A stretch of 64,000 bases of DNA from Octopus vulgaris (taxonomy: Eukaryota), in NCBI GenBank assembly GCA_951406725.2, contig OX597838.1:11470001-11534000 (forward strand). The letters run 5' to 3'. Under the pieces are notes generated by a model, which was given only the letters and a program-made list of their open reading frames with translations, searched no databases and was not told the DNA's origin. The translations under genes were made by a program, and so were the position numbers. Each line of letters opens with the position of its first letter. The stretch's first letter is position 1. This document shows positions 538 through 61,400 of the stretch, one piece after another.

Positions 538-1353
538 TAATACAAAATTAGAAAATGGAGGAATAGATTTCTTTCAATCATCAACTACTAGATAATATCA
601 ATTCATATAATTTATTAACTAATTATTTAGGAACATCCAGATCAAACAGAATAATACAGAATAAAGCAGTACACATCAATAAGTAAGATAATACCATAAG
701 AACAATGCATATAAATATAAAATGGATCTTACAGCTGTTTCAGCCTGTAGATAAGAGTATCTCATTATGCTCATATTAGTCAGATGTATTGAGGTGATAT
801 GTATATTCTAGTATATAGATCTGATTAACTGTAACCTTATGTGTATGTATATTATTATTATTATTATTATTATTATTATTATTATGTATATACTTATATA
901 TATGTATATGTAGGTGTATATACACTTATATGTATATGTATATATGTATATGTACTTATTCTTGTATATGTGTACCTTCTCTAATATTCATATTTGCACT
1001 TTTATATCTTCATTTTATACCTTTATAATTGTACTTTATAATCTCTGACGAGACATTGAGATATATATATAAGTAACTCATTTATAACTGCATATCACCT
1101 CAATACATCTGACTAATATGAGCATAATGAGATACTCTTATCTACAGGCTGAAACAGCTGTAAGATCCATTCTATATTTATATATATTTTCTTATGGTAT
1201 TATCTTACTTATTGATGTGTACTGCTTTATTCTGTATTATTCTGTTTGATCTGGATGTTCCTAAATAATTAGTTAATAAATTATATGAATTGGTATTATC
1301 TAGTAGTTGATGATTGAAAGAAATCTATTCCTCCATTTTCTAATTTTGTATTA
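538..1353. repeat. Long inverted repeat (about 263-bp arms) in a hammerhead-bearing element flanked by (TA)n
   Basis: 538-801 is the near-perfect reverse complement of 1091-1353. A diverged reverse-complement copy of 372-583 occurs at about 47900-48110. Confidence 0.9.
1041..1166 (+). ncRNA. Minimal type-I hammerhead ribozyme motif with long stem II
   Basis: ATCT-CTGACGA-(about 100 nt)-GAAA-C-AGCT-GTA-AGAT. Stem I ATCT/AGAT; palindromic stem III ACAGCTGT; base of stem II only partly paired. Confidence 0.55.
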
Positions 1354-1734
1354 TATATATATATATACATAATGGGTTGGGCTTCTTTCAGTTTCTGTCT
1401 GCAGAATTTACTCAGTAGAAGATGCTGTGCAGTAAGACTGAACCTGAAACCACATGGTTAAGTGATTGAGAAGTAAACTGCTTATCCACAGTCATATTTG
1501 TGCCCAATGTGTGTGTGTGTGTATGTGTGTGCGTGAGAGAGAGGGGGGAGTGGGTGTTTGTATGCCTATAGTCATGATCATTGTTGTCATGACTACCAGC
1601 ATCACCACCACCATCACTACCACCATCTTTATTTAACTATTACTATCACTACCACCGTTACTACCAACTCAAGATGTCACCATCATTATCACAATCATCG
1701 TCGCCACCAGCGATACAGTGGTAGCTGTACACAC

Positions 1735-58400: not shown

Positions 58401-61400
58401 TCTCACTACGGCAATATCATTCTCTGAAAGGCAATAAAAGATTCAAAGGAAGAAAGGAAAGAGAACATTTATTTAAATATTTAATCGATTATAATAATAA
58501 TAATGATAATAATAATTGTTGTATTTAGGAATGGTCATATTGCCAGTTTAGCCAATAAAAACACACGCACTATATATTTGGTGTCACTTTGCTTCAGTGT
58601 TATTTATTTTTTACATTAATCTTAATCTTATTTCGGCCAGAGTTCTTTCGTCACACTCCTGTGACCGCATCAGTGGTCCTTTGTTTTCTTCTTACTTATT
58701 TGTGTCTCTCCTTACTAACCGTCAGCCATTTTGTATTTCTATAGATAATAATAGTAATAATAATAATAATAAAAATGTGCATCTCTGATCACGAGCAGAA
58801 GTAGTGGGGGAGCATCATAGCCATGTGTTGAGAGGGATTCTTTGGGGCTTGAATAATTCACCTCTGGAAACATGGGTGTTTCGTTCAACATCCTTAAACA
58901 ACCCTTATTCAGGGACCTTTTGAGCGGGATGGGCTACTCAACCTGAAGAAAATTCTAACTGGGCCCCACCTGCAAGGTCATGTGCTGTTTATCTTGACAT
59001 TAGATCACCATGTCGCACACATATGGTTGTGATGCATGTGCCTGGTGTACCTTTATCAGACGGGTAGTCATGATGGGTATATTGGGCTTCGTATATTTTA
59101 CCCCAGTGTCACTTTGATGGCATGAACTGCTCTCTCACTCAATAATAATAATAATAATAATAATAATAATAATGATGATGCATGTGCCTGGTGTACCCTT
59201 ATCAGACGGGTAGTCATGATGGTTATACTGGGCTTCGTAAATTTTACCCCAGTGTCACTTTGATGGCATGCACTGCTCTCTCACTCAATAATAATAATAA
59301 TAATAATTTCTACTGTAGACACAAGGCCTGGATTTTGTGGGGAGGGGGACAGTCAATCACATCGACCTAGTACTAAACAATGCTGTTTTAAGTGAAGATT
59401 TCGAGCAAAGCCCAAAAGGTAGTCGGGAATTTAATGAGAGTAAGACTCTGAAATCCACTTGCCCGAGAAAATCCATCACACAAGAGATTAAGTCGGTCAT
59501 AAAATTATCTAGACTAAAACTTGGAGTTTGGACGGAGTTTCTGCCCAAACACTAAGAATTTCGACAAGAATAAACTAGCTCAAGGGCTATTTCAGTTTGT
59601 CCGCCGTCACAAGCTGAAGGATAATTTTTTTAAAAGAAGCTGGTAACAAAGAGTCAGAAAACCCTATGCTTACTGAAAATAAAAATGATGATGATCAAAT
59701 CTGGCATGATTGGATTGAAAAGAATCCTAATTGGTATGTGGAGGCGCAATGGCCCAGTCGTTAGGGAAGCGGACTCGCGGTCGTAGGATCGCGGTTTCGA
59801 TTCCCAGACCGGGCGTTGTGAGTGTTTATTGAGCGAAAACACCTAAAAGCTCCACGAGGCTCCGGCAGGGGATGGTGGTGATCCCTGTTGTACTCTTTCA
59901 CCACAACTTTCTCTCACTCTTACTTCCTGTTTCTGTTGTACATGTATTTCAAAGGGCCGGCCTTGTCACTCTCTGTGTCACGCTGAATATCCCCGAGAAC
60001 TACGTTAAGGGTGCAAGTGTCTGTGGAGTGCTCAGCCACTTACACGTTAATTTCACGAGCAGGCTGTTCCGTTGATCGGATCAACCGGAACCCTCATCGT
60101 CGTAACCGACGGAGTGCTTCCATCCTAATTGGTATACAGATAAAGTTCTGGATGGACGTTCACAAGCCCTACTGGAATTCCTTGAATCTTGTCAGGCAAG
60201 CATTAGAGAAAGCCTTAAGACAAGTGGAAAGAAGTCTTGGAATAACCTCACAAATTCCCAACGTTACGCACTCCGACGTCTCGCTAATAAGGATTCTATT
60301 GTTATTAAAATGTCGCTGTTGTAATTATGGTCAAAAGTGAGTATATTTCGGCTTGTGAAGAAGTTTTAAGAGACAAAACTTCATATGAAAAATTACCTGT
60401 CGATCCAAACCCCAATTACAAAGAGAAACTTGACAAAATAATTCTGAAAATGGAGTAAAAACAATTTCATTTTTCATTAATAAGGCCGAATCCAGGATTT
60501 TACGGTCAGAAAGAGCACCTGTTTTTTAAGGTCTCCTGAAAATAAACAAAATGTTCGAAAAATTTCCTCCAATGCACCCAATTTGCAGCGGATATGAATG
60601 TTGTACAGCCAAGATTTCGGAACGGCTGGACGGGTTTCTACTCCTTATTTCAAAACGTAAGGCCTGGACAAAATAATTCTAAGAGTGGGATGGAAGCACT
60701 CCGTCGTCGGTTATGACGACGAGGGTTCCGGTTGATCCGAATCAACGGAACAGCCTGCTCGTGAAATTAACGTGTAAGTGGCTGAGCACTCCACAGACAC
60801 GTGCACCTTTAACCTAGTTCTCGGAGATATTCAGCGTGACACAGAGAGTGACAAGGCCGGCCCCTTGAAATACAGGTACAACAGAAACAGTACAGCAGGG
60901 ATCACCACCATCCCCTGCCGGAGCCTCGTGGAGCTTTTAGGTGTTTTCGCTCAATAAACACTCACAACGCCCGGTCTGGGAATCGAAACCGCGAGTCCGC
61001 TGCCCTAACCACTGGGCCATTGCGCCTCCATTCTAAGAGTATATAACTAAGAAGTATATAAAAACACCAAGACAATGATACTTACTTATAACATATTCAG
61101 ACAAAAGATAACCTGCGTGTTTTACAAACGATTTCGTAGTTGTTGATTGATCGCCATATTTGTTCTGGTCGTTGGTTCCAATATTTACGCTGATCTTTTT
61201 TACAGGTCCATCACTGCAAATAAAGTAGTGGTGCTGGTTGTAATAGAAGTCGAAGTGAGAGGGTGATGGGTCGGAACGGGAGATAGTATTGTTAGCACCA
61301 ACCAACCATAACCAAGCAGTCCTATGACGCAAACATACGTAGCCGTATTTCGTCTGTCTTTACGTTCTGAGTTCAAATTCCGTCGAGGTCGACTTTGCCT

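Follow-up and report, generated by a model that had tools for sequence, protein, structure and literature searches.

Minimal type-I hammerhead motifs with variant core bases in Penelope-like elements of Octopus vulgaris

Hammerhead motifs are near-universal in the canonical clades of Penelope-like elements (PLEs; PMC8557442), are weak in vitro, and are dispensable in one reconstituted system (PMC11167929). The minimal forms found in PLEs, their abundance, palindromic stem III, low activity as dimers, and U3-A8 core pair have all been published (PMC4209133, PMC6765202), with activity weak even in dimers (Cervera and De la Pena, 2014, PMC4209133). In the Poseidon element PAc of Anolis (Frangieh, 2024, PMC11167929), cleavage is assisted by protein and dispensable for insertion in vitro, and an engineered C3G/G8C exchange partly restores activity; G3-C8 is known as an engineered variant from PMC3884650 as well as from that work. 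Natural A6C and U4C motifs with low but detectable activity were described by Perreault (2011, PMC3088659), and in Naiads the cores are split by 35-50 nt (PMC8557442). Here we compare with these systems a window of 64,000 nt of the Octopus vulgaris genome (assembly GCA_951406725.2, contig OX597838.1, positions 11,470,001 to 11,534,000), which holds remnants of a series of PLE-derived hammerheads.

The kind of element is a known one: PLE minimal type-I hammerheads, their abundance, the dimer logic and the U3-A8 pair are not new. The newer part is a set of families with U6, C9 or G3-C8 cores, more than the general claim that hammerheads are present. Going by sequence, the PLE families with fixed core changes are likely slow cutters, and we lean, with somewhat better than even confidence, towards regarding the motifs as slow, dimer-dependent, self-cleaving hammerhead folds in PLE pseudo-long terminal repeats (pLTRs), in which weak cores would be tolerated because the reverse transcriptase (RT) would have to copy through them uncut.

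The window is part of a 2.8-Gb, repeat-rich animal genome with numerous microsatellites and dispersed repeats. Type-I motifs were sought with several descriptors. The first left positions 3, 7, and 8 free and required Watson-Crick stems and a stem II of at most 40 nt; early descriptors of this kind, limited to Watson-Crick pairs and to a stem II of no more than 40-45 nt, overlooked families with a long stem II or with U.U pairs. The final strict descriptor (N3 U G A N N8 A; stem II; GAAA; palindromic stem III; UH; stem I of at least 3 bp) admits a long stem II and closure by wobble or U.U pairs; it is blind to the 1041 family (families are named by the position of a window copy), which has G.U at 10.1/11.1, and, if stem I must have at least 4 bp, to 28603. 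It makes a palindromic stem III obligatory, so its matches are no independent evidence for that property; stem III was palindromic in both matches of the first scan and in all six of another, where this was not required. In 58635 there is no such palindrome, and that of 5074 is imperfect. An unselected sample of 120 stretches of 10 kb at round coordinates (1.2 Mb) was compared by BLAST with the window sites, and targeted searches were made for seven families; each family had 500-2,800 candidates, of which the best 20-30 loci were taken, with a bias towards the window copy. The 86 scan matches from 2.0 Mb (the sample plus the targeted loci) cluster into 20 families, 13 of them represented by one copy each and all of them keeping the rest of the fold, since the scan sees no others.

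In the 1.2-Mb sample there were 25 strict matches, against 1, 2, 1, 0, and 2 in five shuffles; this corresponds to about one intact motif per 48 kb. Positions 3 and 8 were both left free, and form a Watson-Crick pair in 24 of the 25 matches (16 C-G, 7 G-C, 1 U-A; the other is U.C) and in 19 of the 20 families (14 C-G, 3 U-A, 2 G-C, and one U.C). When the two positions were permuted among families, 19 pairs were reached in 1 of 200,000 trials. Freeing one extra core position gave nine matches at position 6 (eight from the U6 family), six at position 4 (five with C4), one at position 9, and none at position 5, with 0-1 in three shuffles. Descriptors built on CUGANGA accordingly undercount, the sample having 16 C-G motifs, 8 with other Watson-Crick 3:8 pairs, and 15 more that differ at positions 4 or 6. 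The first-pass annotation of this window, made from its letters, had proposed a minimal type-I architecture with short palindromic stem III in diverse families, covariation at 3:8, and core variants that a canonical search would miss; the sample and the 20 families support it on each of these points. The invariant bases (U4, G5, A6, A9, G12, A13, and A14) are kept in the 44999, 5728, 28603, 1041, 5074, and 33001 families, but are broken in the U6 (3174, 56552), C9 (58635), AAGAGGA (24383), and C4 sister families, which by their sequences are hammerhead-derived rather than members of the consensus.

The U6 motif belongs to a coding element. Three window features represent its lineage:

3175-3212, minus strand: U6 motif with the core CUGUCGA and unbroken stems, in a 5′-truncated pLTR copy (about 3070-3263) of the autonomous PLE lineage.
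56557-56593, minus strand: decayed motif of the U6 lineage, at the 3′ end of a PLE that has lost internal sequence.
56818-57180, minus strand: N-terminal fragment of a PLE open reading frame (ORF), upstream of the 56557 motif; a further copy lies at 54709-55029.

The ORF fragment has 151 genomic matches, and its full-length relatives have open frames of 1000-1200 aa. Among 20 of these loci, picked mainly for long frames, a 3174-type U6 motif lies downstream of the ORF in all 20 and flanks it on both sides in 12. The encoded protein matches RVT_1 (Pfam, E 1.4e-7) and, at its C terminus, GIY-YIG (E 3.3e-4, just under the Pfam cut-off). One ORF encoding RT and, at the C terminus, GIY-YIG, direct pLTRs carrying the motif at those 12 loci, inverted copies, and (TA)n ends are together the form of an endonuclease-bearing (EN+) PLE. 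Of 19 other loci, 14 match a 1.9-kb stretch of the ORF at 99% identity or more, and seven pLTR pairs are 95-99.7% identical. The end of one element (L292) lies in (TA)n, about 100 nt beyond the predicted site of cleavage.

A 30-nt pattern of this motif has 14,944 exact matches in the genome with U6 and 158 with A6; the 158 have all four bases at position 7, as sporadic point changes would give. From 98 collected copies, 75 fall in a lineage with a 4-nt loop, and removal of 29 identical young targeted copies leaves 46. In these, position 6 is T in 43 and C in 3, never A; position 7 is A in 16, C in 14, G in 6, and T in 10; position 17 is A in 37, T in 7, and C in 2, never G; and positions 3, 4, 5, 8, 9, and 12-15.1 are fixed at 91-100%. 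A sister lineage with a 3-nt loop (23 copies) has A6 in 22 copies and, at position 4, T in 10 and C in 12; between the two lineages a stem I pair is flipped from C-G to G-C. The sister lineage includes a C4 (CCGACGA) subfamily (L072:5567, L056:678, L073:5799, L078:8721). Contigs of four presumed-RNA runs cover the U6 pLTR with no splice joint or end, and are uninformative about cleavage.

A second PLE carries the C9 motif:

58635-58679, minus strand: C9 motif (CUGAUGC) with a non-palindromic stem III, in a 5′-truncated copy (58515-58742) of a second young PLE.

C9 is present in 26 of 26 copies and in nine of nine ORF-linked copies; two of five unselected copies have A9. Close copies of this motif are 99% identical. 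In all nine ORF-linked loci the motif lies about 420-890 nt past the ORF of this second, distant PLE, which encodes RT and GIY-YIG (RVT_1 and GIY-YIG matches just under the Pfam cut-offs); the longest open frame seen, about 700 aa, is not from a full-length element. In both the U6 and the C9 PLE ORFs, RT and EN are joined by a C-x4-C-x2-C linker. The 1041 family and the C9 ORF recur as equal-scoring copies on small contigs (G000 C35, C36, C44, and the start of C21), possibly within a large tandem unit.

The G3-C8 motif of the window lies in a short non-coding element:

44999-45049, minus strand: intact minimal type-I motif with G3-C8 (GUGAACA), an extra G after A9, a 7-bp stem I, a 5-bp stem II, palindromic stem III, and U17.
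44867-45060, minus strand: non-coding element of about 200 nt bearing the G3-C8 motif near its 5′ end; its 3′ end is often in (TA)n.

G3-C8 was found in 34 of 35 aligned close copies and in 15 of 19 core-spanning copies of the 1.2-Mb sample, the latter equivalent to roughly 40,000 genome copies. A search for a C3-G8 sister gave nine genome matches altered at both positions, none of them to C3-G8. The 5′ end of the element is fairly sharp: of 23 sampled copies, 20 begin 44-62 nt before the cleavage site. Copies are solo or inverted. No coding partner was found in 1.5-kb flanks, and by its sequence the element looks non-autonomous. A second, unrelated G3-C8 motif, with a 6-bp stem I and palindromic stem III, has one copy in the sample (L249:6730, plus strand). 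The first-pass annotation had traced its motifs to PLEs, had taken them to lie in non-autonomous elements, and had suggested looking for autonomous PLEs with the same termini. The origin is borne out by motifs in pLTRs that flank ORFs for RT and GIY-YIG, and autonomous partners exist for the U6 and C9 families; non-autonomy suits the G3-C8 element, but not 3174/56552 and 58635, which are remnants of PLEs with RT and GIY-YIG.

The remaining motif sites of the window are as follows:

5728-5772, minus strand: intact motif with a U3-A8 core, a U10.1.U11.1 mismatch, and palindromic stem III.
28603-28639, plus strand: U3-A8 motif with a 3-bp stem I, absent from the first-pass list; an inverted partial copy adjoins.
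1041-1166, plus strand: canonical C3-G8 motif with a long stem II region (99 nt in the family); closing pairs weakened in the window copy.
726-745, minus strand: 3′ half of a 1041-type motif, in an adjacent inverted, 5′-truncated copy (501-801) of the 1041 element.
33001-33087, minus strand: canonical core with a 59-nt stem II region and a stem III formed by a 12-nt palindrome; stem I is gone where the copy meets an inversion junction, with the inverted arm at 33087-33263.
5069-5112, minus strand: canonical core with U.U at 10.1/11.1 and a 4-bp stem III; in the window copy, stem I is without its 5′ strand.
14408-14467, minus strand: decayed motif of an old family, with A at position 12; relatives are 73-83% identical to the window copy.
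24391-24433, minus strand: hammerhead-derived remnant; the GAAA-palindrome-UU half is intact and the 5′ core is AAGAGGA throughout the family.
37411-37487, plus strand: decayed motif with a long stem II; a single relative (L073) has a canonical core.
3522-3536, minus strand: weak site, a 3′ half alone (GAAA-palindrome-UA), for which no relative was found.

Only the copies at 44999, 5728, and 28603 pass the final core-plus-stems scan. The first descriptor found two (core starts at 45042 and 28606), whereas 40 block shuffles averaged 0.125 and never gave more than 1; if both stems must have 4 bp, 44999 is the sole one left. Most of the others are decayed or truncated members of families that retain the fold. 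Thus the 1041, 5074, and 33001 families have complete canonical motifs in genomic relatives (with U.U at 10.1/11.1 in the 5074 family), their window copies being weakened or truncated, and U3 and A8 are present in 20 of 20 aligned copies of the 5728 family. G12 has mostly decayed to A in the 14414 family, the window copy included; the mixture of CG, CA, and TG suggests that the ancestor had G12. The 24383 family has no Watson-Crick 3:8 pair and C3-U4 in none of 21 aligned copies, its usual core being AAGAGGA. Searches of 1.5-kb flanks found no ORF beside G3-C8, 5728, 1041, 33001, 14414, or 24383 copies, which does not in itself prove non-autonomy. Motifs with canonical cores and a stem II of 45-78 nt, beyond the usual minimal descriptors, also occur elsewhere (L034, L036, L053, L169, L251, L283).

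About ten motifs had been proposed for the window in the first instance, in otherwise unrelated repeats and at about one per 6 kb. Remnants do lie at or near 13 of the 14 places listed, and the density is right for remnants; intact copies number three, one of them (28603) unlisted, and in the sample intact motifs are sparser than that density. Nor are the repeats all unrelated, since 3174/56552, 1041/725, and 33001/32810 go together. The label "ribozyme" is putative, most window copies being broken and three families being fixed for non-consensus core bases. A site at 32810 was rejected as a hammerhead: what lies there is the 33001 element's 3′ tail, with no core in 21 aligned copies. Single weak sites (3525, and one T.C match) may be chance. 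Of the 14 remnants located, 11 are on the minus strand, as are both genes seen in the window; genome-wide the U6 motif is strand-balanced (7,524 vs. 7,420), and the local excess is probably chance.

How such motifs might work can be sketched. Two palindromes, supplied either by tandem pLTRs or by a pair of RNAs, would pair to complete stem III, probably with assistance from the PLE protein. Occasional cleavage would then trim tandem or read-through transcripts, while fast cleavage would sever the ORF from the downstream initiation site; with reverse transcription starting downstream of the motif, which lies about 100-140 nt upstream of the PLE 3′ end, slow cores would be tolerated or even favored. 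Dispersed copies would mostly be 5′-truncated, decaying passengers. Predicted stem III has 0-1 bp in monomers of the short families and 2-4 in those of the long ones, and 4-12 bp in dimers, with duplex energies of +2.2 to -15.9 kcal/mol; these predictions fit dimer dependence. Copy 5′ ends fall within 5 nt of the cleavage site in 1 of 28 U6, 0 of 23 G3-C8, and 0 of 12 sister copies (BLAST starts are approximate, and the 58635 rows, swamped by microsatellite matches, were excluded); since they do not cluster there, inserted cDNA appears to have been copied from RNA uncut at the 3′ motif, in keeping with PAc, whose insertion did not require cleavage (PMC11167929). The free position 7 and the lack of G17 in the U6 lineage make it somewhat more probable than not that its core geometry is still under selection.

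Several observations weigh against slow cleavage, and against that selection. A6 and A9 are invariant in the consensus, and by classical mutagenesis A6U may be dead, not slow. Most flank columns of the U6 motif are likewise 76-100% conserved, so the constraint argument leans mainly on positions 7 and 17, and the spread at position 7 is partly CpG decay. The C9 family has no palindromic stem III in any of 26 copies, predicted stem III duplexes are weak for G3-C8 (-0.2 kcal/mol) and 28603 (+2.2 kcal/mol), and predicted minimum-energy folds differ from the hammerhead form. The 24383 family has spread to thousands of candidates despite two broken core bases. For PAc, no RNA reads were seen to end at the cleavage site (PMC11167929).

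The strongest competitor, possible though clearly the less favored, is that the U6, C9, and AAGAGGA motifs are catalytically dead, the fold being kept as a signal for protein binding, dimerization, or folding, while C-G, U-A, and G-C cores may cut. The dominance of U6 in its lineage, down to the youngest coding copies, would be expected of such a motif, as would C9 at every ORF-linked locus and insertions that extend through the cleavage site; catalytic mutants, moreover, insert normally in vitro (PMC11167929). What it explains less well is that the free position 7, the missing G17, and the G5, G8, and G12 kept across U6 subfamilies match catalytic rather than generic needs, and that natural A6C and U4C motifs keep some activity (PMC3088659). 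It is doubtful that the variant cores are neutral hitch-hikers, a functionless relic whose changes were fixed by founder effects in master copies. Different lesions are fixed in different families, few master lineages mean few independent events, and hammerheads may merely parasitize PLEs (PMC8557442); yet subfamilies differ mostly at positions 7 and 17, with their stems and the rest of the core kept, and 3:8 pairing is kept in nearly all families, although the scan sees only those that keep the fold.

Chance matching in AT-rich, repetitive DNA is a very improbable source of the motifs, even though only one to three window copies pass the strict scans, 32810 was spurious, and an Rfam scan of the window (E ≤ 10) returned no hammerhead family, only simple-repeat miRNA look-alikes. 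For the set as a whole, chance is ruled out by the shuffles, the 3:8 pairing with its permutation result, and the linkage to pLTRs of coding PLEs, where the position is constant; conservation is family-wide besides. Beyond slow cutting as such, a broader proposal seems to us tentative, with the odds somewhat against it: that successful PLEs with recent activity left the hammerhead consensus independently, in several ways (A6U, A9C, U4C, G3-C8) with the fold kept, as a protein-assisted, detuned switch or as a dead scaffold for RT loading. If it is true, the U6 and A6 sisters would be matched natural pairs for settling the role of the motif in retrotransposition.

The window has other features as well. 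An uninterrupted 432-aa open frame at 26665-27963 (minus strand) encodes a membrane protein whose C terminus holds a RING finger (Pfam zf-RING_2) and which resembles RNF121/RNF175; intronless in an animal genome, it is possibly a retro-derived gene. Exons of a trypsin-family serine protease lie at 55430-58442 (minus strand; Pfam Trypsin on one, with other exon-like frames), and the deleted PLE with the 56557 motif sits in an intron of this gene, in the sense direction. A fragment of a Mariner/Mos1-like transposase, with a weak HTH_48 match, is at 39346-39768 (minus strand). Tandem arrays at 7621-8376, 23284-23658, 61870-62565, and 36535-36900 have units of 126, 67, and 184 nt; the 184-nt unit and those of 63-67 nt are members of abundant families of dispersed repeats, and type-I descriptor scans found no hammerhead in the arrays.

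Small PLE-associated hammerhead variants reported by Lünse, Weinberg, and Breaker in 2017 are said to cleave as dimers, with a diminished palindromic stem III and large copy numbers. Literature searches turned up no natural PLE family with G3-C8 or A6U, though one may have been described before, e.g., in that 2017 work; the available parts of PMC6155905, PMC11014351, and PMC6962438 have nothing on these core variants. Young coding families with an altered invariant core offer a test of whether PLEs need RNA cutting at all, and the role of the hammerhead can be tested directly on a young, intact, autonomous A6U PLE, its A6 sister, and the families in which G3-C8 or C9 occurs naturally.

With the metazoan PLE hammerheads of PMC4209133, the octopus motifs share the type-I permutation, short stem I, extra nucleotide after A9, and palindromic minimal stem III, as well as many families per genome, mostly solo copies with inverted neighbors, and the U3-A8 covariant (about 1,300 matches in Schistosoma there). 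To these the octopus adds, as far as the available text goes, G3-C8, family-fixed U6, C4, and C9, U.U at 10.1/11.1, and a stem II of 43-99 nt. U3-A8, U10.1.U11.1, and the disruptive A6C and U4C are also among the natural variants of PMC3088659; those are rare individual motifs, whereas octopus variants are amplified to thousands, and the accessible part of that paper does not mention A6U or G3-C8. Inverted, 5′-truncated neighbors, typical of PLEs (PMC8557442), occur both in the window and in the genomic searches. PAc of Anolis (PMC11167929) has in common a pLTR hammerhead, reverse transcription from downstream of the motif, and AT-rich targets; G3-C8 is an engineered rescue there, and a natural, family-wide state in octopus. 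Unlike PAc, the octopus coding elements carry the C-x4-C-x2-C linker, of the Neptune type (CX2-5CxxC) in both ORFs, a zinc finger common to Neptune and Nematis (PMC8557442). The non-LTR retrozymes (bioRxiv 10.64898/2026.07.22.740005) are likewise non-autonomous PLE derivatives with type-I hammerheads, and the 200-nt G3-C8 element resembles their solo unit. Retrozymes are by definition head-to-tail tandem repeats; the tandem arrays of the window carry no motifs, and the octopus copies are solo or inverted, with ends that lie off the cleavage site.

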